Shown here: positions 14,491 to 46,535 of the stretch, piece after piece | Layout: each line of letters starts with the position of its first letter | Numbering within the stretch: the stretch's first letter is position 1 | DNA from: an uncultured bacterium | GTDB lineage: Bacteria; UBP14; UBA6098; B30-G16 | Length of the DNA: 46,535 nt | Direction: 5' to 3' | Assembly (NCBI GenBank): GCA_964562425.1 | Contig: CAZLTJ010000007.1 | Span: 1-46,535, forward strand | Notes under the pieces: model-generated | What the model was told of the DNA's origin: nothing | Databases searched by the model: none | What the model saw: the letters and a program-made list of their open reading frames with translations, nothing else | Program-made: the position numbers and the translations under genes

Positions 14491-14700
14491 TTATCTTCCT
14501 TTGTTATCTTTAACAGTTACCCATTCGGATATAATTTCTGATATTCTATCGGCAATCGGTTTAGATTCTACTATCATCCAATCAGGAATCATACCATTAA
14601 GTTCATTTAATAACGCAACCATTTCTATAAAATCTTCGATGCACTTTTCTTTCTTAAGGGTAATTATCATTTTAGCGTTTGCCATTATGCGTATTCCCAT
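14491..14700 (-). CDS. hypothetical protein
   Basis: 69-aa ORF overlapping the upstream glycosyltransferase-like gene by 16 nt. Confidence 0.35.
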   Translation of the reverse strand: MGIRIMANAKMIITLKKEKCIEDFIEMVALLNELNGMIPDWMIVESKPIADRISEIISEWVTVKDNKGR

Positions 14701-15488
14701 TGACCTTGATAGTGATTCATTAATATTTCGGATGACTCTTTAGACATAAAAACAACGTCATCTTTTTCCGCAATGATATCTTTATTAGTTACCGGATCAT
14801 TTCCAGTGAACTTTTTTATAATGCCAGTTGCCTTGAACCTTAACCCGATAGGTGTAATTTCATTAGAGATAAATGTATTGACAGGTATAGGGATATTATT
14901 CTCATTGCGTGTACGCATGTATTCCCCATCAAGTCCTAATCTTCTCGTGCCTCTTAATTCAGGAGTATGGATAATTTTAGCACTCTCGCATAATGGTTTA
15001 TCATGGATGGGGATATTTAATATCTTCCCCTGGCCGTCTTTTATGACATTATGTTTCTTATTATAATGAATGCCGGGGACGTTCCTGAATATCCTATTAT
15101 TCTGTGATGGCAATTCAACACCGCCTTGATGCATTATGTTTTTCATCTTATAGACATCTTCTTTAAGACTGCTCTTGTCTATTTGACCATCAAGATATTC
15201 ATCCGTATCTATAATGAAATAGTAATCGTTTTCTGATTTGGAAGTGAAATACATATTTCTCTTTGTCGGCTGATCCTTCCATGCTTCTTTACATTCGATA
15301 ATTTCATCAGAATATGCTTTAGCAATGTCCAGACAACCATCTGTGGAATATGGTTTGTTATGAGAAAACTCCTTATATGCACCATCAACACATACAATCT
15401 TATCAACAGTATCCCTGATTGAAATCAATAACCTTTCAAATAAATCAGGGGTATCGTTAAAGAAGATTGTACAGGCTATCAGGTTCAT
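14685..15488 (-). CDS. GT-A type glycosyltransferase-like protein (paralog of 36077-36766)
   Basis: 267 aa. Motifs VCVDGAYKEF, YSTDGCLDIAK and the DxD-like FIIDTDEY align with IAVDGAFKEF, YSTDGCIDVV and FSIDADEI in the island gene. Located directly after the major capsid gene. Confidence 0.6.
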   Translation of the reverse strand: MNLIACTIFFNDTPDLFERLLISIRDTVDKIVCVDGAYKEFSHNKPYSTDGCLDIAKAYSDEIIECKEAWKDQPTKRNMYFTSKSENDYYFIIDTDEYLDGQIDKSSLKEDVYKMKNIMHQGGVELPSQNNRIFRNVPGIHYNKKHNVIKDGQGKILNIPIHDKPLCESAKIIHTPELRGTRRLGLDGEYMRTRNENNIPIPVNTFISNEITPIGLRFKATGIIKKFTGNDPVTNKDIIAEKDDVVFMSKESSEILMNHYQGQWEYA

Positions 15489-15566: not shown

Positions 15567-16829
15567 TTAAGTGATATCAATATCGATACCGTAATTAACA
15601 ATCCGCTCAGTGGCAATCGCAGCGCGAGGCTTGAAATCCTGACGGGTAGTTGCAACCATCTGATTAAGACCGGACACAATGTTTCTGTCAGTTTCAAGTT
15701 TCATCTGCCGTTTCATACCCCTGGTAAATAAATCCCTGCGACAAACAAGAAGCGCACCGTTATTAGTCACAGAGCCGTCGTATACACCGGAAGTATTTAA
15801 ATCTTCCCGCATAAACTCCGTAATGACATAAGGTGATGCACCGAGTTTGCCAATCTGACCGGGAAGAATGTTAAGGGATTCAGGGCCAGTGTTGACATTC
15901 TCTGTAAAGACCCTGTTATTATTGGCATCAACCAAGTCTTTGGTTTTGCCCTGCACTTTAACACCGGATATAAAAACCAGATTTCTGAAAGCAGCGGCAT
16001 ATTTACCCATATCCGTAACAAGAGACGTAATCTTGTTTGACGTAAAAGTAGACAGTGACCTGGTATAAGAATTTGCAATTGCAAGCCTTCTTAAACCATC
16101 CCATGCTTTCCTGTGGTCATTGGCAAGCGTAACATCACTGTCCTGATGAACAACGGAAGTATCAGAATTAACAATAGCATCGTCAATTGCCCGTGCCATT
16201 ACATTACCGATATCTTCTCGTACTACTGCCATAGTAGCAACTGCCGCATCTTCTGTCAGCTCATCGGACACCTGCACATAATCACCAATGGCAACAGGCA
16301 AGAGATTTACCTTTCCATCCGAGATTGATGATTCAGTAATTGCAGAACCTTCAGATTTAAGATATGCCGTTGACCGTCCTGTCTTAATAGGAAGGTCAAG
16401 ACTCTCAACACCTTGCGGAACAACAGTAATACCAAACAACTTCGCAATCATAAGATCAATCTGTATGAGATCGATAAGCTGCCGGGACATTCCATCAGGA
16501 ACCCAGTCGGCCGTATTGGTCGTGGTCATTGCTTTACCGAGTTCTGATGTTTCCATAAACTCTTCAAAGCGTTTATAAAGCTTCAGGTCTTTTACGGGAA
16601 CCCTTAACATCTTTGAAACGATGTGAAGTTCATCGCACATGTTCTGAAACTTTACAATCTTGATTTCTTCATGGTCTTTGGTATTGGGATCAATCTCTCG
16701 CTTGTGAAGTTCAATCGGGTTAAGGCCGCGTTCGTTATTGATAGCGAACTGACCGTCCCTTATGACATTACTCTTTTTAAATGCTCTTATTGTTTTACCA
16801 ATAAGTTTTTGTGCTTCTAACTTATCCAT
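15567..16829 (-). CDS. major capsid protein (HK97 fold)
   Basis: 420 aa with a coiled N-terminal delta-like region followed by a typical HK97-family core (TADWVPDGMSRQLIDLI..., LPIKTGRSTAYLKSEG, VSDELTEDAAVA). Preceded by protease and scaffold genes. Confidence 0.9.
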   Translation of the reverse strand: MDKLEAQKLIGKTIRAFKKSNVIRDGQFAINNERGLNPIELHKREIDPNTKDHEEIKIVKFQNMCDELHIVSKMLRVPVKDLKLYKRFEEFMETSELGKAMTTTNTADWVPDGMSRQLIDLIQIDLMIAKLFGITVVPQGVESLDLPIKTGRSTAYLKSEGSAITESSISDGKVNLLPVAIGDYVQVSDELTEDAAVATMAVVREDIGNVMARAIDDAIVNSDTSVVHQDSDVTLANDHRKAWDGLRRLAIANSYTRSLSTFTSNKITSLVTDMGKYAAAFRNLVFISGVKVQGKTKDLVDANNNRVFTENVNTGPESLNILPGQIGKLGASPYVITEFMREDLNTSGVYDGSVTNNGALLVCRRDLFTRGMKRQMKLETDRNIVSGLNQMVATTRQDFKPRAAIATERIVNYGIDIDIT

Positions 16830-17415: not shown

Positions 17416-19146
17416 TTAACCTTTCACTTGTGATTCAATGTCTGGTATTGGTTTACCTCTCATTGACTGACCTTCCATTGAAAAGGCGTTAATCTTTCCT
17501 TCTTTTACTAACTTTCTAAGCCTTGGCGATTTCACCTTGACACCTAATACCCATGACCCCGTGATAATAGTTTGACCGCCCTCTTCAAAATCAGCGCGGG
17601 CAATACCACTTTCGATTATTGCAACATCGGCCTTGGATAAAGATTTGCGGTGCATCTCGTTTATGGTTTGATGATCCTCCATAAACTTATGTGCCGCTTT
17701 CTCTATCTCTTCCGCTGTTGCGTAATCGCCTTGGAGGTCAATAGTATTAGGTTCATAGACAACGCCCAGGACTTTGCCTTCTTTCAATAGCCTTTCAGAT
17801 TTAATGATTGGTATTTTTTTATTTATTAAAACATCCCCATCATTTGTATTATTTGAATCGGCTATCCATCCAAGCTTTTTCAAATCCTCAATAATGGTTT
17901 TGTCTGCTTTTAATATTTTCTTTTCATCAGCAAGCTTAATGATATACTTTACCCTGTCTGGTTTCTGCTCGCCTTGATTGACTTCCTTAACAATAGCGTC
18001 CTTAATTATTGCATGATATTGTTTGTCTATCTTGTAAGGCTCGATTGATTTTGCAAGGACAGTAACAATATCATTTTCATCAACGTCAATTTCAGGTGTT
18101 TCAATCTCAATGGCCTTGTGAATATTCTCCGCGTCATTGCCGTCCTTTTTCGTGTCAATGACATATCCCAAATCAAGCATCATCAAACCCTTTAATTCCG
18201 ACTCCTTTTTGTTTATAACTTTAAATTTCAATTCTACCATGTGTTTATTTTGTACAGTACTATTGCCACCGCTATACAAAGTACTGCTATTGAAAATAGT
18301 TCTAACATCTCTTTCACCTTTGATAATGTTTACCAATTCAAGAGATAGTCTATTGAGATTATCTTCATTTAGCCGGATGTCTTTTCTTGATTGCATTTCT
18401 TCATATACTGCCTTTGCTTCTTTGATAATGTCCAATTCAATATTATCTTTTAATCTCTGCTGTTTATATTCATTACACAATATGCTAAAGTGTTTTATCA
18501 ATAGACCGTCACTATACTTTATAACTTTGCTTTTTACTTTATTCTTGATAATGCTGTGGACATGACCGTCCTTTTCCTTAATATCAAATTCAACTACATC
18601 ATGGAAATGTTCATTAAAGATTGATGTTCTGCCGTTTCCTTTTTCATCCAGGTCAACCGTATGCTTATGATCGTCAACTTCCGATGTCTCAAACTTCTCC
18701 TTCTTGAGTCCCTTATTAACGGCCTCTTCAAAAAGGATGGGTGTATGATTATGATCCTTAAGCCAGGCTCTTGCTTCTGCCGGTGTGAATTTCTTAGCGT
18801 CAAACCGGATAGCCTGTAATACTGATTTATCATCTGACGTAATGCCAAAGATAAAATCAATACCCGCGCCGCCCTTATCATTTTGTCTCGCAAACTTATC
18901 AAACTTTTTAGGGTCAACTAATCTTCCGCTATGTTCATTTGGAAACGGTTTGTTAATTACGTTTTTTGATTTGTCTTCTTTTCCAATCATTTTAGATCCG
19001 CATTCAGGACATACTTCGTTTACGCAAGGCGTACCCCTATCATGTTGTTTCTCATGTCCGCATTCAGGGCATACGCATTTATCCGCACCGCCGTCCCTTT
19101 GCGCTGCATTCCCCTGTCCCATACCCCGGCCGCGTATCTTTTTCAT
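17416..19146 (-). CDS. prohead protease-like protein (XkdF-type C-terminal domain) with N-terminal zinc ribbon
   Basis: 576 aa. The N-terminus has CPECGHEKQHDRGTPCVNEVCPECG. The C-terminal ~130 aa matches the XkdF-like pattern (YEPNTIDLQGDYATAEEIEKAAHKFM...HR...IIESGIA). Positioned between portal and scaffold. Confidence 0.6.
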   Translation of the reverse strand: MKKIRGRGMGQGNAAQRDGGADKCVCPECGHEKQHDRGTPCVNEVCPECGSKMIGKEDKSKNVINKPFPNEHSGRLVDPKKFDKFARQNDKGGAGIDFIFGITSDDKSVLQAIRFDAKKFTPAEARAWLKDHNHTPILFEEAVNKGLKKEKFETSEVDDHKHTVDLDEKGNGRTSIFNEHFHDVVEFDIKEKDGHVHSIIKNKVKSKVIKYSDGLLIKHFSILCNEYKQQRLKDNIELDIIKEAKAVYEEMQSRKDIRLNEDNLNRLSLELVNIIKGERDVRTIFNSSTLYSGGNSTVQNKHMVELKFKVINKKESELKGLMMLDLGYVIDTKKDGNDAENIHKAIEIETPEIDVDENDIVTVLAKSIEPYKIDKQYHAIIKDAIVKEVNQGEQKPDRVKYIIKLADEKKILKADKTIIEDLKKLGWIADSNNTNDGDVLINKKIPIIKSERLLKEGKVLGVVYEPNTIDLQGDYATAEEIEKAAHKFMEDHQTINEMHRKSLSKADVAIIESGIARADFEEGGQTIITGSWVLGVKVKSPRLRKLVKEGKINAFSMEGQSMRGKPIPDIESQVKG

Positions 19147-26050: not shown

Positions 26051-26710
26051 CTAAAACAACTCCCCTTGTGCCTGCTCCTCTTTTAAGCGACGGCAGCTTA
26101 AATCATAATATTTCTTTTCTTTTTCAATACAAATAAAACGGCGGTTTAAACGGTGGGCCGCGATCGCGGTTGTGCCAGACCCGGAAAACGGATCAAGTAT
26201 TAAATCGTTTTCTTTACCATAATCATATAAAATCTTCTCAAACAATTTCACTGGTTTTTGCGTTGGATGGATGCGTTTTTGCTTGTCTGCAGATTCCTTC
26301 GTGGTTGCTCTATTGTGAAAACTACACATTGTTATTTTTTTTAATGCCCTTTGAAAACTGGTATAAATCAACTCACCATCTGAAAAATCACCGCCCATCA
26401 TTTTATCCCAAAATATCCATCCCATTGAAGATGTCAAATATTCTACGAAATAATTCGCACCAAATATTATTTGATTTTTAGAAACCCTAAATATCTCACT
26501 AAAGCAATCTGCAGACGGCTTCTCCCTGTCCCATTTTATTTTATCATAAGTGGTAAATTGAACACCGCCCCTTGTTCTATCTGGTCTATATCCATCCTCA
26601 CCTATTGCATAAGGAGGATCTGTCAATACTAAATCAATAGAATTATCAGGTAACTCTTTTAATATATCCATACAATCGGCGTGTATTATTTTATTGATAT
26701 ATTCTTTCAT
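26051..26710 (-). CDS. DNA methyltransferase (N6-adenine or N4-cytosine, beta class)
   Basis: 219 aa. Catalytic motif IV LTDPPYAIG lies near the N-terminus and AdoMet motif I DPFSGSGTT near the C-terminus. Confidence 0.85.
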   Translation of the reverse strand: MKEYINKIIHADCMDILKELPDNSIDLVLTDPPYAIGEDGYRPDRTRGGVQFTTYDKIKWDREKPSADCFSEIFRVSKNQIIFGANYFVEYLTSSMGWIFWDKMMGGDFSDGELIYTSFQRALKKITMCSFHNRATTKESADKQKRIHPTQKPVKLFEKILYDYGKENDLILDPFSGSGTTAIAAHRLNRRFICIEKEKKYYDLSCRRLKEEQAQGELF

Positions 26711-26916: not shown

Positions 26917-27753
26917 TCATCCTTTCCTTAATTCATCAAGTAGTTTAATTGTCGCTTCGGCTTCATGCAATTTAAACTTGCCCTCATTAATAATAGCTTC
27001 GTAATTTTGAATATGCAGATCGTTATCCGATAGGTCGAGCAATTGGCCGTTGATAAGAAAATCCCTCCTGATCTTTCCTTCGCTGCTTTTAATTCCGTGT
27101 TTATCGACCGTTGAACTGGCAATTGATAGAGACCAAGCCGCCCTCGCATAATCAAAAGACGATACGCCCTCTATATGACCATGGCCTAAAGCCGCGCCCG
27201 TACTATCAATAAACGACCCTTTGTGATTACCAAACATATACAGAAGCAAATCGAATAAATGTATCCCGATATTAGAAAGCAAGCCGCCCGATTTGACGAC
27301 ATCGCCCTTCCAGCTTTTAGAATACCAATCTCCACGCGGAGTCCTATATACGATTTCAACAATATTTTTTGCATCGCGCTTGAAGTTTACTATCTCGGGA
27401 TGTAGACGTAATTGACTTATGAAACGAATGTGACTTTTAGCTAAATATAACCTGTTAAAATCGTACATGCTTAAGACAAGCGGCTTTTCGCAGATGACAT
27501 ATTTTGATCGTGAAAGTAAACAATGCTGAAAATGTAAATGGTTCGGCGTACAGATGACCGTATAATCGCAATCGGCCGTCCACCGGAAAAACTCTGTCTC
27601 GCAGGTAGTGAATTTAATTCCCCTATCAAAACTATCAAGCCAGCCAACATTTGTCGAGATATCACAAGCATATTTGACCGTATGTCCCAGGTCGTAAATG
27701 ACTTTAACATGACGCGGTGCAATGTAACCTAATCCTATAATTGCAAATTTCAT
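26917..27753 (-). CDS. Gfo/Idh/MocA-family NAD(P)-dependent sugar oxidoreductase
   Basis: 278 aa. N-terminal Rossmann motif MKFAIIGLGYIAPRH and the family EKP motif (VICEKPL). ATGA overlap with the upstream kinase-like gene. Confidence 0.7.
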   Translation of the reverse strand: MKFAIIGLGYIAPRHVKVIYDLGHTVKYACDISTNVGWLDSFDRGIKFTTCETEFFRWTADCDYTVICTPNHLHFQHCLLSRSKYVICEKPLVLSMYDFNRLYLAKSHIRFISQLRLHPEIVNFKRDAKNIVEIVYRTPRGDWYSKSWKGDVVKSGGLLSNIGIHLFDLLLYMFGNHKGSFIDSTGAALGHGHIEGVSSFDYARAAWSLSIASSTVDKHGIKSSEGKIRRDFLINGQLLDLSDNDLHIQNYEAIINEGKFKLHEAEATIKLLDELRKG

Positions 27754-28142
27754 AATTTAGGCTCCGGGGATTGTAAATCATGTCCGAAATAATAAACCCC
27801 GTCTTCATATTCATAAGGATATTCCGGGTGAACTTTCCCGCCACTAAGATAAATAAATACGCAGCCTGTTATTTCCTGTATTGCTTTTCTGGTTTTCTTA
27901 TATGGCGCTATGACCGAGACAATCACATCAACGCCTTGAGAGTCAATCAGCTTTGCGATTTTGGCAATTCTCAAGTTATGGTTGTGTCTATTGTCTTCAG
28001 AAAATCCCGTTGGATAAATATCCCGAATTGCATCGCCATCCAAAAGAACAGCACTCTTGCCGAATTTTCTTAGCTGACCTTGCATCTGAAGACCAAGGGA
28101 AGTTTTGCCACTTTCACTTTGCCCTGTAATCCATATTATCAC
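27750..28142 (-). CDS. adenylylsulfate (APS) kinase-like P-loop kinase, short form
   Basis: 130 aa. Aligns by eye with E. coli CysC over about 95 residues: P-loop WITGQSESGKTS, LLDGDAIR, GFSEDNRHNHNLR and VIAPYKKTR. Lacks the CysC C-terminal lid (KGLYKKAR). GTG start with GGAGG 7 nt upstream. Confidence 0.6.
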   Translation of the reverse strand: MIIWITGQSESGKTSLGLQMQGQLRKFGKSAVLLDGDAIRDIYPTGFSEDNRHNHNLRIAKIAKLIDSQGVDVIVSVIAPYKKTRKAIQEITGCVFIYLSGGKVHPEYPYEYEDGVYYFGHDLQSPEPKL

Positions 28143-30035: not shown

Positions 30036-30070
30036 CCTCTATCCCTCCCTTTTAGGTAATGTACCCGTAC
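30032..30070 (-). repeat. gene-junction cassette, copy 2 (diverged)
   Basis: Plus strand ccatcctctatccctcccttttaggtaatgtacccgtac. Encodes the GTGTLPKREG tail, an SD and the next ATG. Confidence 0.6.
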
Positions 30071-30446
30071 CGTTGCACTGCCACTTATTATTACAATGCC
30101 TTTCAAAGCACTCCCACGTATTGCCATAGGGGTTCTTAATCCATGTTGAATTACATTCAGGGCAGTGTGTGGGTTTCTGTTCAGGGCATTGGTCTGGTAA
30201 TGTAGGTAAAGGCTCATAAGTCATTTCAAAGATGTCTGGTTTGCATGGATAGTATTCACCTTTTACCCCTCTGATAATCCAATCTCCTGACTCTGCCTGC
30301 ATAGAACCCTCAAGCGTATCAATGAATAAGTACCGCCCCTTTACCCTGATTGACGATATGAGTTTCATGTTCTCAACGCACTGTGGGTCATCTGGATTCC
30401 ACTGGTCTGCATCAATCTCAACTGGTTTCTTTATATATCTTGCCAT
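30039..30446 (-). CDS. hypothetical phage protein (KKPV...YPCKPDIFE domain) with Cys-rich tail
   Basis: The track ORF runs to 30527. I prefer the ATG at 30446 (MARYIKKPVEIDA...) because GGAGGAG lies 7 nt upstream and it sits 4 nt after the upstream stop. The C-terminus ends in HCPEC...CNGTGTLPKREG. Confidence 0.5.
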   Translation of the reverse strand: MARYIKKPVEIDADQWNPDDPQCVENMKLISSIRVKGRYLFIDTLEGSMQAESGDWIIRGVKGEYYPCKPDIFEMTYEPLPTLPDQCPEQKPTHCPECNSTWIKNPYGNTWECFERHCNNKWQCNGTGTLPKREG

Positions 30447-30450
30447 CTGT

Positions 30451-30942
30451 TTACTCCTCCTCTGGTAATGTAGGTAAAGGCATCCAGTGGGTGACCTCCC
30501 AACCATCATCTTTATCAGTATCACCACACCAATCTACCCAATATTTTTGGGTCGAGTCATAGTAGGCTTGAAAATGAACAATCTTTCCGCAAGTTTTAAC
30601 TTTGACTAATTTCCCTATTTTGTTTTCCGGCAATCTATCTTTAACGCTTATCCATTCAGGCCGTTCCAGCCCAGCCTGTACAGCCAAGAGGAATGTCAAT
30701 TCAGCTTCTGCGTTTCTAATTGTTGTACCATACATACCGTTTGGCTTTTCCCACAACCATGCAAGACACTTTTCAAGATTTCCCATGGATGGGATCTTTG
30801 GCTTATCAGGGGTGCAGGATTTGAGTTTTTTTTCTAAAAAATCTACATAATCAGGATTTGCAAGTTCTCTGCCTATCTCCTGCTTGGTTATTTTCCACCA
30901 TATTTCACGCCCGAACTCTTTACGCAATTCTGATACTGTCAT
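30451..30942 (-). CDS. DUF551-domain protein
   Basis: 163 aa. C-terminal DUF551 signature WISVKDRLPE ... VTHWMPLPTLPE. Confidence 0.6.
   Translation of the reverse strand: MTVSELRKEFGREIWWKITKQEIGRELANPDYVDFLEKKLKSCTPDKPKIPSMGNLEKCLAWLWEKPNGMYGTTIRNAEAELTFLLAVQAGLERPEWISVKDRLPENKIGKLVKVKTCGKIVHFQAYYDSTQKYWVDWCGDTDKDDGWEVTHWMPLPTLPEEE
30625..30684 (-). repeat. 60-nt block identical to 31627-31686
   Basis: ttccggcaatctatctttaacgcttatccattcaggccgttccagcccagcctgtacagc occurs verbatim in both DUF551 genes. It encodes AVQAGLERPEWISVKDRLPE. Confidence 0.9.
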
Positions 30943-32548: not shown

Positions 32549-33235
32549 TTAGTATAAATTAAAGTCATTTAATATCGTATTCATTGTCCTTGAGTATTGT
32601 CCTGAATGCCACTTTAATATTTTCTCAGTGGGGTTGCGCCCGCTTTGCATCCACCATATAGGGTGGATATTACATTGTACGGATTGCCCTTTTTTAAACC
32701 ACTCGCTTTCAAATGGATTCCCTTCACGGAAAAATCCCCTTGAATCAGAGATATATTTAATGTCCCCAAACCATTGCTTTTTATAAGTATGTTCTATTGT
32801 TGGTGCATAGCTTGAAAAAGATTTTATTGCAGGTTTATGAATTGATATTATCTTTGGGAATATGCAAAATGTTTTAAAAAATATACTGCATTCAGTATAA
32901 CATTCAACTTTAACGTCTTCACCATAGATACCGGGATTAAAATGTAAGCTGATATCATGATGTTTTAATATATTATTAATCAACGTCCTGTTTTCTTCTT
33001 CCAGTATGCTATAAAAAGGTAGTGTCATTATAAAGAAATACGTTGCATCTATCCCGTAAGAATTTTCAAGCAGTGACATTGCGTAAGCATATTGTATGTC
33101 AAAGTCAATATCATGTCTTAATATTACTTGTTTATCTTTACCATGCTCAAAAATCTTGAACGTCTTAAAGACGTAATCATGTTTAATAAAAGTATCTAAG
33201 AAATTATGGTATGTGCCGAACTCATTTGTATTCAT
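32549..33235 (-). CDS. polysaccharide deacetylase-like protein
   Basis: 228 aa. The VILRHDIDFD ... GIDATYFF pattern resembles the divergent polysaccharide deacetylase/carbohydrate esterase families found in surface-glycan clusters. Overlaps the sulfotransferase gene by 14 nt. Confidence 0.4.
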   Translation of the reverse strand: MNTNEFGTYHNFLDTFIKHDYVFKTFKIFEHGKDKQVILRHDIDFDIQYAYAMSLLENSYGIDATYFFIMTLPFYSILEEENRTLINNILKHHDISLHFNPGIYGEDVKVECYTECSIFFKTFCIFPKIISIHKPAIKSFSSYAPTIEHTYKKQWFGDIKYISDSRGFFREGNPFESEWFKKGQSVQCNIHPIWWMQSGRNPTEKILKWHSGQYSRTMNTILNDFNLY

Positions 33236-34160
33236 TTAATGCCTTTCCATTATAATTTAATTTGATTATGATATCTTCCAGCATAACTTTAAGTAAAGAT
33301 ATTTCACTGGCTGTCAAATCCTTTCTCCATCTTCCAATATTGTGTTTGTTTAGATTAATATCCAACATCTTTTTATTAAATGGCAGACCGATAAAATTAC
33401 AAATATCCGTAATAGTTTCTTTAGGATTATGTATTAATTTTTCAAATCTGATTTCATAAAAAGAATTTACAGGCAATCCCTTTCTTATTTCAAACCAGCG
33501 ATTAATAATATCAGCGTACATTTTAACCGATAATTCAATTTCAGACGGACACCATCTTTGTTTTACGAATGAAGTTACAACGTCTAGCGGATTGCGGTAT
33601 ATGTGAATTATTTTAGCGTCCGGCATTATTTCTAATAGCTCTTTAGCAAAAAGAATATTCCATGTGTTATCTTCAACATACATTTTTTTATTCTGCTTCT
33701 TAAGAATACTGCTGATAACATCATTGATAAACTTTCTTATGATAGGTTTTAATGTTTCTTTAGATTTAGGTGACGAATAACACATTTGTATTGCTTGATT
33801 TTCTGCACCAATCCACGATCCATAAAAATAAAAAGTATGCAATTCGTTAATTAATTTAACAACAAACTCACTGAATTCTGGAATATGTTTATCAAGTTCC
33901 CAATCCTTATAACCAATGAGTTGTGATTTCTTGTTAGAAAGTTTTTCTAAAAGAGTTTCCAGTCTTTTCAATCGCCTGTCAATTACATAAGGTGTCCACG
34001 TTTCAAAACTATTATAGAAATCAACTAACCCATCCGGATCGATTATAAACCGATATTCAAAAGGCAGCGTTGCGATATCAGTGTGCAAGCCTAAAATATC
34101 TTTAAGAATGTTAGTACCGCACCTGCCAGTACCGCCTATGAATACAATTTTAGTTTCCAT
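33222..34160 (-). CDS. PAPS-dependent sulfotransferase
   Basis: 312 aa. 5'-phosphosulfate-binding loop FIGGTGRCGTN at the N-terminus and 3'-phosphate-binding motif IIHIYRNPLDVVTS mid-protein. Confidence 0.7.
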   Translation of the reverse strand: METKIVFIGGTGRCGTNILKDILGLHTDIATLPFEYRFIIDPDGLVDFYNSFETWTPYVIDRRLKRLETLLEKLSNKKSQLIGYKDWELDKHIPEFSEFVVKLINELHTFYFYGSWIGAENQAIQMCYSSPKSKETLKPIIRKFINDVISSILKKQNKKMYVEDNTWNILFAKELLEIMPDAKIIHIYRNPLDVVTSFVKQRWCPSEIELSVKMYADIINRWFEIRKGLPVNSFYEIRFEKLIHNPKETITDICNFIGLPFNKKMLDINLNKHNIGRWRKDLTASEISLLKVMLEDIIIKLNYNGKALNEYK

Positions 34161-34176
34161 TTGTCCTCCATAGTTT

Positions 34177-34764
34177 TTATAAATAAGCCTTAAGGAATTC
34201 AGCGATTTTGTTTCCTAGAACATTATTGCCGAAATCGTTTTGATGAACACCGTCTGTTGATATACATTTTTTTCTGTTGTTTTCAATAATAACTTTATGC
34301 AGATCGTTGACGGTTATATTTTCATCCTCGATCACCTCTAGGGAAGCTTTATTATATTTGTCAACATCTATATTATTGCGAATATAAATTTTTGTTTCTT
34401 GGCTTTCTTTTCTAAGGGGTGTTATCGTTGCCCATATTAATGTAATATTTTCTGATTTGCAACGCTGAATTACTTCACGAATATTTTTTTGATATTGCGG
34501 TACGCTGCAGCAATAATTTCCACGCCGTTCTAAATCCTTCCATATTTTTAAATCATGCAGGCCAGCATTCCAGTGCATTATATCCGGCTTGATTAATGTA
34601 ACCCATTTGTTCCAGTTATTCAAAATATATACCGACCGACCGCCATTATCGCTATATTCTTTGTCTTTTATAATTGAAAAGTCAGCTTTTCCCTTTAGCC
34701 GATCCATAACAACATGACGGTATCTTTTACATATACTATCACCTGCAAGCAATATTTTTTTCAT
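34177..34764 (-). CDS. SGNH/GDSL-family hydrolase (esterase)
   Basis: 195 aa. Block I LLAGDSI with the nucleophile Ser, and block V TDGVHQN (DxxH). Confidence 0.7.
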   Translation of the reverse strand: MKKILLAGDSICKRYRHVVMDRLKGKADFSIIKDKEYSDNGGRSVYILNNWNKWVTLIKPDIMHWNAGLHDLKIWKDLERRGNYCCSVPQYQKNIREVIQRCKSENITLIWATITPLRKESQETKIYIRNNIDVDKYNKASLEVIEDENITVNDLHKVIIENNRKKCISTDGVHQNDFGNNVLGNKIAEFLKAYL

Positions 34765-36087
34765 TTAAAACCTCACATATTCAATAAGCGCTACATTTTT
34801 TCCAAAGAATTCTTTAAATCCCTGCCTGAATTGATTAAGTCCGGTATTTAATATTTCTTCAGTTATCATGTATGTATGAAATTCATTTGGCTTAATATTC
34901 AATCCGGTAAGGATTAAAATATTCGTCTTTGTTACTCGACCTATCTGTAATAGCGCCCTGTCCAAATGACAAACGCTATCTAATACAGCAAAGGCAATTG
35001 TAGTATCAAACCATAAATCAGGATAGCTTAGTTTTTCTATTTTCATCCTTACTACATTATTATTTACAGGATATGCGTCAATGCCGGTGTATTCTGTATC
35101 GGGCGATAAGTATCCTTTCACAATCATTGATCCGCATCCAATATCTAAAACTTTCTTTCCGATGTTTACCTTTTTAACGTGTGAATCATACTTGTTTACC
35201 GGCCCCTTGATTAAGTTTACACGTTCTTTCCTGCGCTCCTTTCTACGCTGCATTAGATTTTCCATTTTTCTATACCACACCTGCCTTTCATTATTACGGA
35301 TCGTGTGGAGCGCTTCCATTTCTTCATCGCTGATTTGTTCTTTTTGATTTTGCTCTTGTGCCTTCAAAATAATTCCCTTGTTATTAGTTTCTATTCCAGT
35401 TAATTTCCAATTAATACTTTGCGCTAAAATTGTCAGGGGTTCGGGGTTTGCAATAGTTTCTTTCCAAATTGTACGATCTTTCCCTGCTCTCGGTTGATTA
35501 ATTAAATATCCCGTTTCGTGATTAACAGCTATAATTGGTATGTTCTTTTCCTGTGCAAAAATAGAAAACTCCACATCATCTAAATTTCTATTCTTAAATT
35601 CACTTAATTTAATTTCTATCGTATCTGAATGATATGACATTACCCCTGTACCGGCAACATGAATCTCTCTATCGTTAGGCCAATCGCGTAAACATCTACA
35701 TATAATTTCCTGGTCAACAATCCAATGGTGTAATGGTTGTTTTAAAATACGACCGTGTAAAGTTATAATTGCCCTGCGTTCATATTGTTCTATTTTTGCA
35801 ATTGATTTTTCTATATAATCTTCAGGATAGATAATGTCATCATCCAAATAAAATAAATAGCCTTTGATTTTATCAGAGATGTAAAACCTGCTTGCCGATC
35901 CATAGTCTTTACCAATAATACAAATTATTTTATCATTATCTAAAAGGAAGCCAGGCACACTACTAAAATCATTGAGGTAAATATAAAACGTATCGATCTG
36001 GTCAATTATACTTGATACTGCCTTTTGTAAATATTCGACTCTGTTTGGCATTGTTGGTATGATTGCGGTTTTCATTTTAGAAATCAT
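34765..36087 (-). CDS. bifunctional GT-A glycosyltransferase / class I SAM methyltransferase
   Basis: 440 aa. The N-terminal GT2-like half has TAIIPTMPNR and the DxD motif FYLDDDIIYP. A basic linker follows, then a C-terminal methyltransferase with motif I KVLDIGCGS. Confidence 0.65.
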   Translation of the reverse strand: MISKMKTAIIPTMPNRVEYLQKAVSSIIDQIDTFYIYLNDFSSVPGFLLDNDKIICIIGKDYGSASRFYISDKIKGYLFYLDDDIIYPEDYIEKSIAKIEQYERRAIITLHGRILKQPLHHWIVDQEIICRCLRDWPNDREIHVAGTGVMSYHSDTIEIKLSEFKNRNLDDVEFSIFAQEKNIPIIAVNHETGYLINQPRAGKDRTIWKETIANPEPLTILAQSINWKLTGIETNNKGIILKAQEQNQKEQISDEEMEALHTIRNNERQVWYRKMENLMQRRKERRKERVNLIKGPVNKYDSHVKKVNIGKKVLDIGCGSMIVKGYLSPDTEYTGIDAYPVNNNVVRMKIEKLSYPDLWFDTTIAFAVLDSVCHLDRALLQIGRVTKTNILILTGLNIKPNEFHTYMITEEILNTGLNQFRQGFKEFFGKNVALIEYVRF

Positions 36088-36766
36088 TTAATTCCCTCCG
36101 GTATTCCCATTCTTTACGGTTAGCTTTATAGCTTTCCTTTTGATGTTGTCTTTTCTTTGGCCTTAAATCCTGCCTGTTATGAATTAACATTGTATCGCCA
36201 TTTTTATCTACAAGTGACTTTCTTGTTTTATTCATCCTGCCCTTTGCACTTGTAACTAATCCGCTTTCTAAGTCCCCTTCCTTATGCTGTCTTGTCCTGT
36301 AAATCGTGCAATGACGGTATCGGTATTCAATATCGTCATACATTTTATAACCCCGGACAGTATTGAGCATCAAAGTGGTGCCGTCTTCGTGAAACCGTTT
36401 TTGTTTTATACGGTATACATCTTCTGTTAATTCTATTCCATCCCAACTGAATGGCTGCATTATTTCATCCGCATCAATGGAAAAACAATAGGAACCTATC
36501 GGCGTATGTTTAAAATATTGGTTTCTTTTTACCGCCTGGTTAAACCAAAAATCTTTAGGTGCGCTAACATGAATATCAGCATATTTTCTAACAACATCAA
36601 TACATCCATCGGTTGAATAATATTTTTCATTTGGCAATAATGGAAACTCTTTAAAAGCGCCGTCTACTGCAATTATTTTAAAACCATTTGCCTTTAATGC
36701 TTTAAAGCAACTCTCAAGCAAGCCAGGCGAATCATTATAATAGATGACCCCTGCATATAATTTCAT
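36077..36766 (-). CDS. GT-A type glycosyltransferase-like protein (paralog of 14685-15488)
   Basis: The track ORF starts at GTG 36793. I prefer ATG 36766 (MKLYAGVIYYND), which aligns with MNLIACTIFFND of the paralog. Motifs IAVDGAFKEF, YSTDGCIDVV and FSIDADEI. Confidence 0.6.
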   Translation of the reverse strand: MKLYAGVIYYNDSPGLLESCFKALKANGFKIIAVDGAFKEFPLLPNEKYYSTDGCIDVVRKYADIHVSAPKDFWFNQAVKRNQYFKHTPIGSYCFSIDADEIMQPFSWDGIELTEDVYRIKQKRFHEDGTTLMLNTVRGYKMYDDIEYRYRHCTIYRTRQHKEGDLESGLVTSAKGRMNKTRKSLVDKNGDTMLIHNRQDLRPKKRQHQKESYKANRKEWEYRRELNDF

Positions 36767-36780
36767 TTTAAAATCTCTGT

Positions 36781-36897
36781 TTATTTCTTCCACATTCTAC
36801 TTCTGTTTGCTTTTGAACCCATAAAAAATACTACATATAATAATAGCATAATTATATAAAGTAGAAACACATCAAATAGAATGTGAATCCACCCCAT
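36781..36897 (-). CDS. 38-aa hydrophobic peptide
   Basis: Hand translation MGWIHILFDVFLLYIIMLLLYVVFFMGSKANRSRMWKK gives one TM helix plus a basic tail. GGAAG lies 2 nt before the ATG (short SD spacing). Lies between two GT genes. Could be chance in AT-rich DNA. Confidence 0.3.
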   Translation of the reverse strand: MGWIHILFDVFLLYIIMLLLYVVFFMGSKANRSRMWKK

Positions 36898-36925
36898 TGC
36901 TTCCGGATCAATCGAATCTTTAATT

Positions 36926-37741
36926 TCATATAATCTTTTTATCAAATACATCTTTACTTAATCCTAATAATCTATCTGCGATATATTCAGGGACAATATC
37001 GCCGATGACTTTATCGGTTTTATAAAAAGGCGGTTGTGGGTTTTGATAGTGCCGGACTCTCTTAAGGGAAATTTTATTGAATCCATCTGTATTAATACCA
37101 GTTTCCCAATTCCCTCCATTCCATATAGTATTCATATCAGATCTAAATATATCATATTTAACCGATCTTGCATTCCTATAAAGCCAACCATCAATCGTAA
37201 AGCCCTTATCTCTAAACGGAAGATTTTTAATAAGCTCCATCCTTATAGAGATGTTTACACCTTTCGACGAAAAGGACTTTGATTTTTTAGATGGGATATG
37301 ACTTCTTAATATAATCTGTCCCGTTTTGCAATTATAAAAATATATGTTTTCATAATGTATCCAATCGTATCCGCCCTTTATATGATTATAAGCAGTTGAA
37401 ATCCTATCATTCTGTGAATAGTTATCAGATGCTTGCAATAACAACATCTCTGATTTTTTATCAGCTGACTGGACAATGAATTTCCATTTACTTTCAAGGG
37501 TCACATAATCTTCCAAGTCAATAAATTTTATTTCCCTGCACCCTGCTTTATAAAGCCTGTCTCTGTAAGAATCAAAGAATTGATTTCCGCAATATCCATC
37601 TTCACTATCAGGACATAATTCTTCACAGATAATTAATTCCCATTTAAAATTAATGTTTACTTGATTACATAGGCTTTCCATGGCAAGCCATACGATTGCA
37701 CTTGATTTAAACACTGGCAAACCTACGGATAGTTCAATCAT
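36926..37741 (-). CDS. family 2-like glycosyltransferase
   Basis: 271 aa. Typical GT2 N-terminus LSVGLPVFKSSAIVWLAMESLCNQ. ATGA-type overlap with the upstream acyltransferase gene. Confidence 0.6.
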   Translation of the reverse strand: MIELSVGLPVFKSSAIVWLAMESLCNQVNINFKWELIICEELCPDSEDGYCGNQFFDSYRDRLYKAGCREIKFIDLEDYVTLESKWKFIVQSADKKSEMLLLQASDNYSQNDRISTAYNHIKGGYDWIHYENIYFYNCKTGQIILRSHIPSKKSKSFSSKGVNISIRMELIKNLPFRDKGFTIDGWLYRNARSVKYDIFRSDMNTIWNGGNWETGINTDGFNKISLKRVRHYQNPQPPFYKTDKVIGDIVPEYIADRLLGLSKDVFDKKII

Positions 37742-38523
37742 TTAGTTTCTTGCCTTTTTGCAGGGACACCCATTACTGTAATATTGTCAGGTATGTCTTT
37801 AGTGACCACACTCCCCATGCCCACCATGCAATTACTCCCTACTTTAATTCTGTTTCTGATTATAGCACCCGGAGCTATCCGCGTACCCTCTCCTATTTCG
37901 CAATGACCGAGCAGGATTGCGCTGGACATAATCAAAGAGTTGTCGCCTATTTTAACGTCATGCGATATGGAGCAAAGATTATCTATCTTCACACCATTTC
38001 CAATTACAGTATTGCCAAAAGTCCCCCGGTCAATGCAGACACAAGCACCAATGTCAACGTTATTTCCAATTATCACACCGCCGATATTAGGAAATCGAAT
38101 AGGTTTATTATTTTCATCCTTAACGAATCCATAATTATCTTTTCCTATAACACTATTTTCGCCTACATAAACGTCTCTGCCTGTTTCACAACAGGAATAA
38201 ACAGTAGCATTGTCAAACTTACTGTTATTTATCCCATCTCTTATAGGAAATTTCTGCATTTGATAATGATAAAACTGTTTAATAACCTTTGCCATTGCAA
38301 GGCGCGGATTATCAACAGGAATAAATGATTTACATTCACCATACACTTCCTCTAATTCCGGTGCTAATACAATCATATTTTGATTTAATAATTTAACAAC
38401 ATCATTATACATAAACGTCAACGTATTCTCTTTGTAATTATCAAACTCCGACACTCCTTCAATTTCAACGTCCTCTCCAATGATAGGCGCGTTTAAAAAT
38501 TCTGCTATTACAGATAGTTTCAT
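37738..38523 (-). CDS. LpxD-type UDP-aminosugar N-acyltransferase (left-handed beta-helix)
   Basis: 261 aa. LpxD-like N-terminal domain (MKLSVIAEFLNAPIIGEDVEIEGVSEFDNYKENTLTFM). The hexapeptide core aligns closely with E. coli LpxD and keeps the catalytic His context: IGGVIIGNNVDIGACVCIDRGTFGNTVIGNGVKIDNLCSISHDVKIGDN. Confidence 0.75.
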   Translation of the reverse strand: MKLSVIAEFLNAPIIGEDVEIEGVSEFDNYKENTLTFMYNDVVKLLNQNMIVLAPELEEVYGECKSFIPVDNPRLAMAKVIKQFYHYQMQKFPIRDGINNSKFDNATVYSCCETGRDVYVGENSVIGKDNYGFVKDENNKPIRFPNIGGVIIGNNVDIGACVCIDRGTFGNTVIGNGVKIDNLCSISHDVKIGDNSLIMSSAILLGHCEIGEGTRIAPGAIIRNRIKVGSNCMVGMGSVVTKDIPDNITVMGVPAKRQETK

Positions 38524-38704: not shown

Positions 38705-39265
38705 CTATCCTAAATTCATTATCTTAAATGGTCGCCTTACAAAAGGACTATAATATTCTGACGTTTCCAACGCTTTAATAATTAATACATCTGGCGCTAT
38801 TTTTCTTTTGATTGATCTATATAGATCAATAGACGTTCTCATAGATGCTAATGCATATTGGAAACCACACCCTACTGAGCAATAATTATCTGATGGAATT
38901 GCTACTTGGAAATCTGGCTGTATCTCATATAATCTATTTTTAAGTCCGACAATAAACGAACCGCCCTCTTCTACCTTGTTTACTATCTCGGTGAAACCGC
39001 CATCTTTAAATACCTTCCTTATTTTATCAATAAATAGTGTATTAATATATTCATCTACATCCATTCCTTCGGGAAAAGATGGTCTAATAAATTTCCAACG
39101 TAGTAAATTACCCATTCTATAGGATGTTGTAAAACCATATATTGCATTGTCCTTAATAAATACTTTATCATCGCCCCTAGACATAATGCGAGAATTATTT
39201 GAACCGGCATTATCTGCGCCAATATAAATCTTTTTATCATAAATCCAACCTACTACACAAGTCAT
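38705..39265 (-). CDS. proteasome beta / HslV-like Ntn hydrolase
   Basis: 186 aa. Thr at position 2 (MTCVVGW) could serve as the N-terminal nucleophile. GADNAGS, DDKVF and the late VGCGFQYALAS motif parallel HslV TTIV..GDGQ..KV..GSGGPYA. Confidence 0.6.
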   Translation of the reverse strand: MTCVVGWIYDKKIYIGADNAGSNNSRIMSRGDDKVFIKDNAIYGFTTSYRMGNLLRWKFIRPSFPEGMDVDEYINTLFIDKIRKVFKDGGFTEIVNKVEEGGSFIVGLKNRLYEIQPDFQVAIPSDNYCSVGCGFQYALASMRTSIDLYRSIKRKIAPDVLIIKALETSEYYSPFVRRPFKIMNLG

Positions 39266-39728: not shown

Positions 39729-39917
39729 TTATCCTTTTATTAAAAATCCCTCTGACTTTTTCTGCCTAACAAAATATTTAACGTTTGAAAGTATTCCACC
39801 TGTAAATCGTTTCATCCCGTTCTTTTTAAAAAGTATCTCACCATTGTAATGTCTTAGCTTTTCATCAATTTCTAATACTGTGATTGTTCTCGGCTTATCT
39901 GATTCAAGAGTTATCAT
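39729..39917 (-). CDS. hypothetical protein
   Basis: 62-aa ORF. ATGA overlap with the upstream DUF1937 gene. Confidence 0.35.
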   Translation of the reverse strand: MITLESDKPRTITVLEIDEKLRHYNGEILFKKNGMKRFTGGILSNVKYFVRQKKSEGFLIKG

Positions 39918-40261
39918 AGTATAAAGTCCTCATTGATATATTCTATCTCTAGGCCTAAATGAGTGGCTATCTCGATTTCATTCGTAATGCCGGTCGATGT
40001 TTCCCACCCTTGAAGTTTAAGCACAAACATTTTATAACAGACAGACAAATAAACAGTGTCAAATTTTTCCCAGTACCTCCATTCAACAGGCAGTTTGCAT
40101 TGCATTGCAATGGGATGCGTATGTGATATAGGGGAAAAGATAATGTGTCCTTTCTGCATTAACAAACCAGCGCACTTGCTGACTTTTTCAAACCGTTCTC
40201 TCATTACAATGGCTGATTGATGCGTATACGGACAAGCTAAATAAGCTATTTGTTTATTCAT
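39914..40261 (-). CDS. DUF1937 protein (nucleoside 2-deoxyribosyltransferase-like fold)
   Basis: 115 aa. AYLACPYTH, IFSPISHTHP and LQGWETSTGITNEIEIA match the DUF1937 pattern. Confidence 0.55.
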   Translation of the reverse strand: MNKQIAYLACPYTHQSAIVMRERFEKVSKCAGLLMQKGHIIFSPISHTHPIAMQCKLPVEWRYWEKFDTVYLSVCYKMFVLKLQGWETSTGITNEIEIATHLGLEIEYINEDFIL

Positions 40262-46348: not shown

Positions 46349-46535
46349 TTATTTCACCTCCTTAAAATTTACCTCTACCGTTTTACCACGATAGGATATT
46401 TTTGTTTTGTCAAAGTTTGTATCACATATGTCGGCACCGTACAGGTTGGCACCGCGCAAGTCGGAATTGTTAAGATCGGAATTGCTAAGGGTGGCACCGC
46501 GCAAGTCGGAATTGTTAAGATCGGAATTGCTAAGG
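46349..46535 (-). CDS. pentapeptide-repeat protein (C-terminal part; 5' end outside the window)
   Basis: Not in the ORF track. Hand translation: LSNSDLNNSDLRGATLSNSDLNNSDLRGANLYGADICDTNFDKTKISYRGKTVEVNFKEVK, then stop. Regular A(D/N)LxX pentads. A 45-nt DNA segment is repeated in tandem (46446-46490 / 46491-46535). The SD for the next gene lies in its last codons. Confidence 0.75.
   Translation of the reverse strand, partial: LSNSDLNNSDLRGATLSNSDLNNSDLRGANLYGADICDTNFDKTKISYRGKTVEVNFKEVK

Follow-up and report, generated by a model that had tools for sequence, protein, structure and literature searches.

The 46,535-nt contig CAZLTJ010000007.1 (assembly GCA_964562425.1), analysed here at its full length (hereafter, the window), corresponds to a novel siphovirus-like phage with all of its genes on the minus strand, among them those for the large terminase, portal, major capsid protein, tape measure, a DnaB-like helicase and a replisome organiser. 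Between positions 32549 and 38523, this phage carries a block of eight co-directional minus-strand open reading frames (ORFs), here named P1 to P8, most of whose products are predicted to assemble and decorate a glycan (Table 1). From P1 to P8, the junctions between these ORFs measure -4, -26, -13, -11, 0, +16 and -14 nt, five of the seven being overlaps, and a small ORF upstream of the block also overlaps by 4 nt; therefore, the block is embedded in a long co-directional transcription unit. Its flanks consist of early genes and DUF551 genes. An earlier note on this DNA had described seven or eight mostly overlapping, co-directional genes located inside phage DNA, between early genes and DUF551 genes, and our results agree with that description. 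Its coordinates were too narrow, since they left out a gene pair for an adenosine 5'-phosphosulfate (APS) kinase and a WbpB-like dehydrogenase, as well as P4b, a glycosyltransferase (GT) gene on the capsid side; with these three genes, located elsewhere in the window, the glycan gene set amounts to about eleven genes.

Table 1. Glycan gene set and adjoining capsid gene, in window coordinates.
Feature	Position	Strand	Length (aa)	Basis of assignment
Major capsid protein gene	15567..16829	-		phrog_10 and phrog_617, major head protein
P4b, P4 paralogue	14685..15488	-	267	Similarity to P4; immediately downstream of the major capsid protein gene
WbpB-like UDP-sugar 3-dehydrogenase (GFO/IDH/MocA)	26917..27753	-	278	PF01408, 4e-12
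APS kinase-like P-loop kinase	27750..28142	-	130	PF01583, 5.9e-22
P8, CE4/NodB-fold metal-dependent deacetylase-like protein	32549..33235	-	228	AlphaFold2 model and Foldseek
P7, predicted PAPS-dependent sulfotransferase	33222..34160	-	312	Pfam and motifs
P6, SGNH/GDSL esterase or O-acyl-transfer enzyme, soluble	34177..34764	-	195	DUF459 and motifs
P5, fusion of a GT45-type GT and a class I SAM methyltransferase	34765..36087	-		PDB, profile and Pfam matches
P4, GT-A glycosyltransferase, GmaR/SunS-like	36077..36793	-	238	Model, Foldseek and profile
P3, single-pass membrane protein	36781..36951	-	56	Kyte-Doolittle 19-residue maximum of 2.79
P2, phage-specific probable GT-A glycosyltransferase	36926..37741	-	271	Weak GT2 support
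P1, LpxD-like UDP-aminosugar N-acyltransferase	37738..38523	-	261	Left-handed beta-helix with catalytic His

The same block with its phage flanks was re-assembled on three independent contigs (samples 3300028837, 3300008516 and SRR3085416) and is thus genuine phage DNA; together with the finding of the junction between capsid and GT genes on a fourth contig, this rules out a chimeric assembly or a bacterial flank. One of these samples, SRR3085416, comes from Baltic Sea subsurface sediment (PMC9301287). Further, in a sister phage recovered on two contigs of a single sample (L008 and L001), the order P2-P3-P4-P5-P7-P8 is maintained, with identities of 49-73%; this phage differs by an added radical-SAM (S-adenosylmethionine) gene, by YopX in place of the esterase, and by the lack of an LpxD-like gene upstream of P2. 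The added gene, located between the P4 and P5 homologues (L008:2331-3272), encodes a 313-aa radical-SAM protein with a CSMNCNFC motif and a weak PF04055 match (0.0064); this protein may perform an additional sugar tailoring, such as C-methylation or epimerisation, which is not encoded in this window. Regarding composition, the GC content of the block is 33.6%, compared with 37.3% in the rest of the window and 34.8% in the adjacent early region, and GC at third codon positions (GC3) is 0.302 in the block versus 0.324 (Mann-Whitney p = 0.55). The contrast of 25-27% versus 43% GC reported in the earlier note was a sampling artefact, and the moron-like acquisition proposed there was not sustained, as block GC3 is indistinguishable from that of the rest of the phage and other phage contigs carry the nearest relatives of the GTs, of P7 and of P8. 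Composition shows no sign of a recent acquisition of the block, and an AT-rich island or recent moron is ruled out.

The predicted sulfation step involves P7, for which matches to Sulfotransfer_3 (PF13469; 4.7e-23, 83 bits against a cut-off of 27) and Sulfotransfer_1 (PF00685; 8.6e-14, 52 bits against 22) were obtained. The P7 translation contains both motifs for binding 3'-phosphoadenosine 5'-phosphosulfate (PAPS), GTGRCGTN and IHIYRNPLDVVTS, with a 5'-phosphosulfate loop (GGTGRCGT) and a 3'-phosphate motif (RNPLDVVTS), and residues G9, G10, G12, R13, G15, T16, R189, D193 and S197 are invariant in the alignment of its family; we assign P7 as a predicted PAPS sulfotransferase. Its closest homologue among 332 shows 57% identity and lies on the phage-like contig L001, the others being at most 45% identical and found in cellular polysaccharide clusters. 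The APS kinase-like protein scored 78.8 bits with PF01583 (cut-off 21.1) and displays the motifs GQSESGKTS, LLDGDAIR and VIAPY; its similarity to APS kinases in PDB (1e-15) spans residues 2-98 only, and positions 3-97 of the 152 in the profile are covered. Its gene overlaps that of the WbpB-like protein by 4 nt, the two being translationally coupled, about 4.4 kb downstream of the block. The WbpB-like protein aligned at full length with WbpB (3o9z; 1.1e-37, residues 2-272 versus 5-291). For P6, matches to DUF459 (32.7 bits, above cut-off) and Lipase_GDSL_2 (2.7e-7) were found together with the motifs GDS and DGVH (DxxH).

Two proteins located at the ends of the block, P1 and P8, may exchange the N-acyl group of an amino sugar. 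P1 matched Hexapep (5.8e-24) and, under the cut-off, the N-terminal domain of LpxD (PF04613, 26.8 bits); it aligned with E. coli LpxD from PDB (9.4e-30) over residues 151-307 of the latter, with the catalytic His conserved, the 'SISHD' segment pairing with 'QIAHN' at H239. NCBIfam LpxD models gave 8.7e-51, with scores of 173 versus 207 and 160 versus 242.5, both under the cut-offs; P1 also has fewer coils and stops at about position 313 of E. coli LpxD, without the C-terminal helices that bind acyl carrier protein (ACP). Because of these sub-threshold scores and the missing ACP-binding helices, P1 is classified as a predicted LpxD-like protein, not as LpxD. As for P8, no match was found in Pfam (including PF01522), NCBIfam or the PDB sequences; its AlphaFold2 model, with a mean predicted local distance difference test (pLDDT) score of 93.5, retrieved nearly only CE4 deacetylases or esterases among the top 24 PDB structures by Foldseek (probability 1.0, template modelling scores of 0.4-0.58). 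Residues R40, H41, D42, D44, H93, H98, H133 and H191 are invariant in the P8 family, and the Asp and His residues among them fit the motif pattern predicted for a metal-dependent deacetylase. This family is widespread and distinct, and has no Pfam or NCBIfam model; one member sits in a Wzx/Wzy cluster in Muricauda. In cellular metagenome loci, P8 family genes directly adjoin an LpxD-like acyltransferase gene in 9 of the 39 loci that could be evaluated (E values down to 2e-44), and this adjacency supports a 'de-N-acetylate then N-acylate' step, as the earlier note had put it. No sulfotransferase gene was found beside P8 family genes in the 80 metagenome loci fetched with P8, and P8-like genes occurred in 2 of 80 sulfotransferase loci; an association of P8 with a sulfotransferase as a conserved rule, resembling N-deacetylase/N-sulfotransferase (NDST), is thereby weakened, and an NDST-like step of deacetylation followed by N-sulfation becomes less probable.

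The P8/P1 pair mirrors the logic of NodB/NodA and LpxC/LpxD, and all the tailoring steps of Nod factors find a match in the window: a GlcNAc-type GT, a CE4 deacetylase, an N-acyltransferase, a SAM methyltransferase, a PAPS sulfotransferase and an APS kinase. These coincidences would be expected if the product were a free or lipid-linked glycoconjugate, i.e., a Nod-factor-like oligosaccharide bearing sulfate, methyl and N-acyl groups or a modified nucleotide sugar, acting in the infected cell as a signal, decoy or metabolic poison. We give this explanation very little credence: beyond the sulfotransferase and methyltransferase superfamilies and the CE4-like fold, the protein families are unlike the Nod enzymes; the ACP-recognition domain required for fatty acyl transfer of the LpxD type is missing from P1; and such a product, for which no exporter is encoded, would need fewer than the four GTs present, of which one is encoded in the head module.

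Among the GTs, P4 (229 aa if the alternative ATG start at 36766 is used) yielded an AlphaFold2 model with a pLDDT of 92.9, and Foldseek assigned it to GT-A folds (probability 1.0), its structural neighbours in BFVD including GT2 proteins of giant viruses and phages. A profile built from 40 family members matched GmaR (1.6e-10) and SunS (1.2e-4), as well as ThuS and TarS; 23 of the 40 homologues matched Glyco_tranf_2_4 and 19 matched GT2, and residues D107, D109 and E110 are invariant. GmaR, the O-GlcNAc transferase of Listeria flagellin, and the S-glycosyltransferase SunS act in the cytoplasm, where they attach sugars to proteins or peptides. P4b is a paralogue of P4 (37% identity by BLASTP, 7e-27; hhalign probability of 100 with the P4 family, 6.7e-45), and the arrangement of a capsid gene followed by a P4b-type gene recurs on the independent contig L221. 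The solved relatives closest to this family, together with the location of P4b beside the capsid gene, suggest a protein or peptide as the putative acceptor of P4 and P4b.

P5 combines a KfiA/PmHS2-type, alpha-GlcNAc-transferase-like domain (about aa 1-230) with a methyltransferase (about aa 300-440), joined by a highly charged, possibly helical linker. The first domain aligned with heparosan synthase B (PmHS2; 1.7e-21, residues 10-219 versus 305-523; 1.5e-40 with the family profile) and with KfiA (2.2e-12, residues 8-223 versus 8-222; 2e-23 with the profile), its DDD motif at residues 82-84 being invariant in the family; we place it, from these matches, in CAZy family GT45 and not in a generic GT2, and it probably adds an alpha-linked GlcNAc. 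The P5 homologue in L008 also scored above the GT2 cut-off. The second domain exceeded the Methyltransf_11 cut-off (24.0 bits versus 21.2) and contains the motif KVLDIGCGS. For P2, no Pfam match was obtained; it had 13 homologues in 5.8 billion proteins, all of them from phage-like contigs, and in IMG/VR its family comprises 51 loci from 34 non-redundant lineages. GT2 was matched by 4 of the 13 homologues (1e-4 at best), and the family profile reached K4CP (0.005) and TarS (0.02). The hypothesis that P2 is paralogous to either P4 or P5 was ruled out (hhalign probability below 2%).

Taken together, these analyses substantiate most of the enzyme assignments made in the earlier note, i.e., an LpxD-type N-acyltransferase (graded here as LpxD-like), a GT fused to a class I SAM methyltransferase, an SGNH esterase, a sulfotransferase with both PAPS-binding motifs, and a deacetylase-like protein identified by the motif LRHDIDFD, for which the CE4 fold was recovered by modelling and structural comparison. 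Regarding the three GT-A enzymes proposed there, P4 and the N-terminal, GT45-type domain of P5 were sustained, whereas P2 has weak GT2 support. Likewise, the proposed cytoplasmic location of the chemistry agrees with soluble enzymes, none of which has hydrophobic segments, and with the lack of flippase and polymerase genes, but a membrane protein, P3, is encoded inside the block; it is the only one there, and is conserved in L008 as an ORF with 62% identity at the same position.

A combined reading of P5, P7 and P8 leads to a more specific proposal, in which the capsid would be primed by the GmaR/SunS-like GTs, P5 would add alpha-GlcNAc, NDST-like de-N-acetylation and sulfation would follow, with P7, whose gene overlaps that of P8, using PAPS supplied by the phage's own APS kinase, and a methyl group would cap the chain, thus producing a heparan-sulfate-like coat. 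Neither a UDP-glucose dehydrogenase nor Kps genes of the heparosan pathway were found in the window, and none of its GTs was identified as KfiC-like. We consider a coat of this precise composition improbable.

Searches for relatives of these genes in other genomes separated two components, as the GT families appear to be part of a phage toolkit, and the tailoring enzymes resemble genes of cellular polysaccharide clusters. By tblastn, none of about 50,000 GenBank phage genomes matched P7, P4 or P5, and close-pattern scans of IMG/VR with P7, P5 and P4b or with the P7 family alignment were likewise empty; the P4 alignment retrieved one locus in IMG/VR. The cassette L009:6621-9358 (IMG/VR 3300031997_000009), in an unrelated 63.6-kb phage, contains three tandem P4 paralogues followed by a stand-alone P5-type, KfiA-like GT, and it lies directly upstream of terminase genes, one large-terminase-like and the other a probable small terminase judged by its position. 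Genomic relatives of P7 number at least 231, with identities of at most 45%, and occur in Anaerolineales, Flavobacteriales, Marinimicrobia and archaea. Within at most 8 kb of the 80 best cellular P7 homologues, genes for a left-handed beta-helix (LbH) acyltransferase were found in 12 cases, WbpB-like genes in 7, APS kinase in 3 and P8-like genes in 2 (loci L116 and L095 are examples of such combinations). The overlap of the co-directional genes in the block and the presence of the same combinations in cellular polysaccharide clusters point to one functional unit.

These cellular settings bear on the possibility that the phage remodels the envelope of its host. The enzymes would then act at the inner membrane face on undecaprenyl-phosphate- or lipid-linked intermediates of O-antigen, capsule or teichoic acid, on which sugars would be added, re-acylated, methylated and sulfated, host flippases or transporters would export the product, and the changed surface would block superinfection or the sticking of progeny to debris. 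All the cellular homologues of P7, P8, P1 and the WbpB-like protein belong to Wzx/Wzy-type or GT-rich polysaccharide clusters, P5 is homologous to capsule (heparosan) synthases, and the conserved membrane protein P3 could tether the enzymes to the membrane; moreover, the location of the block in the early region predicts its expression before that of the structural genes. TarS, found among the matches of P2 and P4, acts on a membrane-bound polymer as a soluble GT-A enzyme, as does TarP. Conversely, Wzx, Wzy, ABC-transporter and phosphoglycosyl-transferase domains were missing from the scanned ORFs, no initiating transferase, flippase, polymerase or exporter was found among ORFs of at least 100 aa, and no integrase or repressor was detected by Pfam in ORFs of that size. 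GtrA/GtrB/Gtr-type or acyltransferase_3 membrane proteins, which together with lysogeny functions constitute a lysogenic seroconversion set, are likewise missing from the window. A target in the host envelope would also leave unexplained the GT paralogue in the head module and the recurrence of the P2 family on the capsid side, and the nearest relatives of P2, P4 and P5 are found on phage contigs rather than in cellular clusters. On balance, we regard envelope remodelling as rather unlikely.

The neighbourhoods of the P2 family in other phages also bear on the target. In 6 of the 34 non-redundant IMG/VR lineages, the P2-type GT lies within two genes of a capsid gene located upstream of it, and among the 132 immediate neighbours of these GTs the commonest Pfam families were GT2 (17), Phage_capsid (5) and methyltransferases (5), with DegT (3 of 132), Hexapep, GFO_IDH_MocA and Phage_connect_1 also represented. 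Seven fetched P2-type loci contain a relative of the portal protein of this phage at a distance of about 3.5-7 kb. The gene order in L007 is terminase, P2, GT2, methyltransferase, GT2. In four viral loci (L034, L038, L039 and L056), WbpB-like and LbH genes adjoin the P2-type GT; at L038:9941-12268, the GT is followed by a WbpB-like dehydrogenase and by an LbH acyltransferase similar to P1 (1e-39). This suggests that a P2-type GT, a WbpB-like dehydrogenase and an LbH protein, in some cases with DegT, constitute a recurrent viral module that makes and transfers a 2,3-diamino sugar.

Location near structural genes is also compatible with an action on DNA, in which the GTs would attach a sugar to a hydroxylated or hydroxymethylated base, with later methylation or sulfation, enabling evasion of restriction and CRISPR. 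Phage GT-A enzymes akin to lipopolysaccharide and teichoic-acid GTs glycosylate 5-hydroxymethylcytosine, and their clusters can lie near terminase and structural genes, according to a recent preprint (bioRxiv 10.1101/2023.12.21.572611). In a study on phage contigs with T-dioxygenases, GT45 was listed among the annotation profiles, which shows that this family was sought, not that it was present (bioRxiv 10.1101/2025.08.14.668559). In the window, the glycan block is located upstream of the replication genes and of a DNA methylase gene. On the other side, Pfam searches of the ORFs of at least 100 aa revealed no TET/JBP (5mYOX) dioxygenase, ThyA-like hydroxymethylase, hydroxylase or C5 methyltransferase; three ORFs left without annotation corresponded by tblastn to an exonuclease or to hypothetical proteins; and the sole DNA methylase is of the N6/N4 type. 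Its gene (26051-26710, minus strand; PF01555, 2.4e-28), flanked by the WbpB-like gene on one side and by the replication genes on the other, encodes the only DNA-modification enzyme detected in the window. We know of no description of sulfation or N-acyl exchange on DNA-linked sugars. Further, about 65% of the phage contigs with GTs have no base-modification partners and were judged unlikely to act on DNA by the authors of the former preprint (bioRxiv 10.1101/2023.12.21.572611). Altogether, modification of the phage DNA appears very improbable.

We weighed the findings in two parts. That the phage encodes a cytoplasmic pathway which assembles, N-reacylates, methylates and sulfates a glycan is, in our judgement, highly likely. 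That the acceptors are virion proteins falls slightly short of an even chance; the evidence leans towards them by the position of P4b beside the capsid gene, the P2-type GTs near capsid genes and the protein-glycosylating relatives of P4. For the complete statement, pathway and virion target together, we estimate a probability of roughly 0.45. The earlier note had left the target open between envelope and virion; the present evidence leans towards the latter. As the gene of a sugar-adding enzyme stands beside the capsid gene, the particle may receive a coat of sulfated glycan from the phage itself.

If the product is placed on the virion, the pathway could proceed as follows. In donor tailoring, the WbpB-like dehydrogenase would oxidise UDP-HexNAc(A) at C3, with a transaminase presumably supplied by the host, and P8 and P1 would act on an amino sugar, either linked to UDP or already bound in the glycan, to exchange its N-acetyl group for a different acyl group. 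The chain might be started on a protein side chain by P4 and the capsid-adjacent P4b, and extended by P2 and by the KfiA/PmHS2-like domain of P5, whose fused methyltransferase would add a methyl group to the chain and perhaps cap it. O-acyl groups would be removed or moved by the SGNH enzyme P6, and P7 would add sulfate from PAPS, whose supply from host APS would be boosted by the phage APS kinase. The major capsid protein would be the first candidate among the virion proteins proposed as acceptors, and the progeny particles would carry an anionic, methylated and sulfated glycan coat that could affect their adsorption, aggregation and recognition in the sediment.

Several observations weigh against this proposal. 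The nature of the glycan, its acceptor and the activity of the enzymes are all predicted from homology and gene neighbourhood. The main block lies among early genes and not among structural genes, and all the cellular relatives of P7, P8, P1 and the WbpB-like gene belong to envelope polysaccharide clusters. P2 is not firmly established as a GT, given its weak GT2 support and the lack of an hhalign relation to P4 or P5, and Foldseek places P4 equally close to GTs whose substrates are polysaccharides and teichoic acids. The APS kinase has no complete C-terminal lid region, as about 23 residues between a beta-strand and the PYE motif are absent by comparison with E. coli CysC; such a lid-less kinase may be inactive or use another substrate. 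No ORF for a WbpE-type or DegT transaminase is present in the window, and the contig lacks a terminal repeat and is probably incomplete. Moreover, clusters of DNA-modifying GTs in phages have also been reported near structural protein and terminase genes (bioRxiv 10.1101/2023.12.21.572611), and adjacency to capsid or terminase genes is thus not specific.

The wider genome has no close cultured relatives. TerL shows at most 29% identity to that of any GenBank phage, and megablast with 11 kb of the window returned one 63-bp match only; this stretch (about 30226-30288), 86% identical in 27 Vibrio siphophages (SSP002-like), is the sole likeness to cultured phages at the nucleotide level. The ORF that contains it (30039-30527), in the DUF551-rich region, has a PLPTLP motif in common with the neighbouring DUF551 proteins. 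A tRNA scan of the window was negative, and its promoter and terminator scans gave counts indistinguishable from those of shuffled sequences. Directly upstream of the glycan block, an HslV/proteasome-like peptidase is encoded (38705-39265, minus strand; phrog_1040, 1.4e-16, with a weak match to Pfam Proteasome), followed further upstream by a DUF1937/DUF4406 protein (39914-40261, minus strand; 1.2e-21), of a family with a nucleoside 2-deoxyribosyltransferase-like fold. At its 3' end (46349-46535, minus strand), the contig truncates the gene of a pentapeptide-repeat protein (…LSNSDLNNSDLRGATLSNSDLNNSDLRGANLYGADICDTNF…), and its final 25 bases are present twice, 45 nt apart. Since pentapeptide-repeat proteins can be DNA mimics, the truncated gene could be an early gene with a role in anti-defence or in the protection of gyrase.

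In the head region, a gene of the minus strand (17416-19146) encodes a 576-aa head-maturation protein of unusual length, with a Cys-rich, zinc-ribbon-like segment at the N-terminus and a prohead-protease-like region at the C-terminus (phrog_3017, 5e-30). Two genes of the tail/neck region, also on the minus strand, encode a 360-aa Gly/Asn/Ala-rich protein without Pfam matches (11010-12092), which, judged from its composition, might be a beta-helix, and a 264-aa protein with a weak Ig/FN3-like match (9409-10203). These two proteins may have receptor-binding, depolymerase or decoration roles, and could represent alternative glycan acceptors to the major capsid protein, which is itself a candidate.

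These findings constitute the first coherent pathway context for virus-encoded sulfation, as phage sulfotransferases have until now appeared only in lists of auxiliary metabolic genes, without an explanation. Virus-encoded glycosylation has been described in chloroviruses, giant viruses and some mycobacteriophages; to our knowledge, no virus coats its particle with a sulfated glycan by means of its own enzymes. If the product is located on the virion, particle glycosylation would extend beyond actinobacteriophages, and such a strongly anionic modification may influence adsorption to minerals or cells, recognition by immune systems or grazers, and persistence in sediment. Should the coat be heparan-sulfate-like, it would represent both the first instance of glycan sulfation encoded by a virus and the first sulfated glycoprotein virion that a bacteriophage builds with its own enzymes. 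The GT families of P2 and P4 and the deacetylase family of P8, which lack a Pfam model or any characterised member, merit description. From a biotechnological perspective, the KfiA-like GT-methyltransferase fusion, the small sulfotransferase, the CE4-like deacetylase and the minimal APS kinase are compact, soluble enzymes of interest for producing sulfated glycosaminoglycan-like molecules in bacteria.

Compared with known systems, a close analogy is found in mycobacteriophages of the Che8 type, whose capsid and tail-tube subunits carry shielding glycans at their C-termini (PMC12619734). Both cases involve a tailed phage that encodes its own soluble GTs. There is no sequence relation between them, as about 50,000 phage records searched by tblastn contained no match for P4 or P5, and in the present phage, known from its genes alone, the GTs are joined by a sulfotransferase, an APS kinase, a deacetylase, an N-acyltransferase, a dehydrogenase and an esterase. 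Among viruses of eukaryotes, A064R of chlorovirus PBCV-1 contains two GT domains and a methyltransferase domain that methylates the newly added sugar, and giant viruses have glycan gene clusters in which LbH N-acetyltransferases are encoded beside GTs. The likeness lies in the host-independent cytoplasmic assembly of the glycan, the fusion of GT and methyltransferase, and the enzymes tailoring nucleotide sugars; the difference lies in the eukaryotic hosts and the other GT families. We know of no sulfation in the glycosylation of chloroviruses or giant viruses.

With respect to bacterial pathways, P5 is homologous to the heparosan synthases KfiA of E. coli K5 and PmHS2 of Pasteurella over the whole catalytic domain, DDD motif included, whereas neither a beta-GlcA transferase partner nor a UDP-glucose dehydrogenase or a Kps export system was identified in the phage, and those synthases lack the methyltransferase that P5 carries. 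The full-length WbpB homologue and the LbH N-acyltransferase recall the WbpB/WbpE/WbpD route to UDP-2,3-diacetamido-2,3-dideoxy-uronic acids, except that the WbpE-type transaminase is not in the window and P1 is LpxD-like, with a UDP-binding N-domain, and not WbpD-like. The Nod-factor genes (NodB, NodA, NodS, NodH and NodPQ) follow the same order of chemistry, i.e., deacetylation, N-acylation, methylation, sulfation and PAPS supply. The parallel drawn in the earlier note thus holds for each chemical step, APS kinase included, but not at the level of families: it is a functional analogy only, as the window encodes no member of the NodA or NodC family and its proteins bear no close similarity to the Nod proteins. 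In NDST1, deacetylase and PAPS sulfotransferase activities are united in one protein (PMC10864358). The phage is predicted to encode the same two activities as overlapping genes, with P8 as a (beta/alpha)-barrel metal deacetylase and P7 as the sulfotransferase, while the cellular partner of the P8 family is an LpxD-like acyltransferase (9/39) and not a sulfotransferase (0/80).

Finally, no description of a viral pathway for glycan sulfation was found in the literature searched. Genes of the Sulfotransfer_3 type have been recorded in viral metagenomes and in Synechococcus phage S-SRM01 as 'auxiliary metabolic genes', their function being called unclear there (PMC10580990, PMC8290583). Those are isolated genes, whereas the sulfotransferase gene reported here forms part of an operon with GTs and is accompanied in the same phage by a cognate APS kinase.

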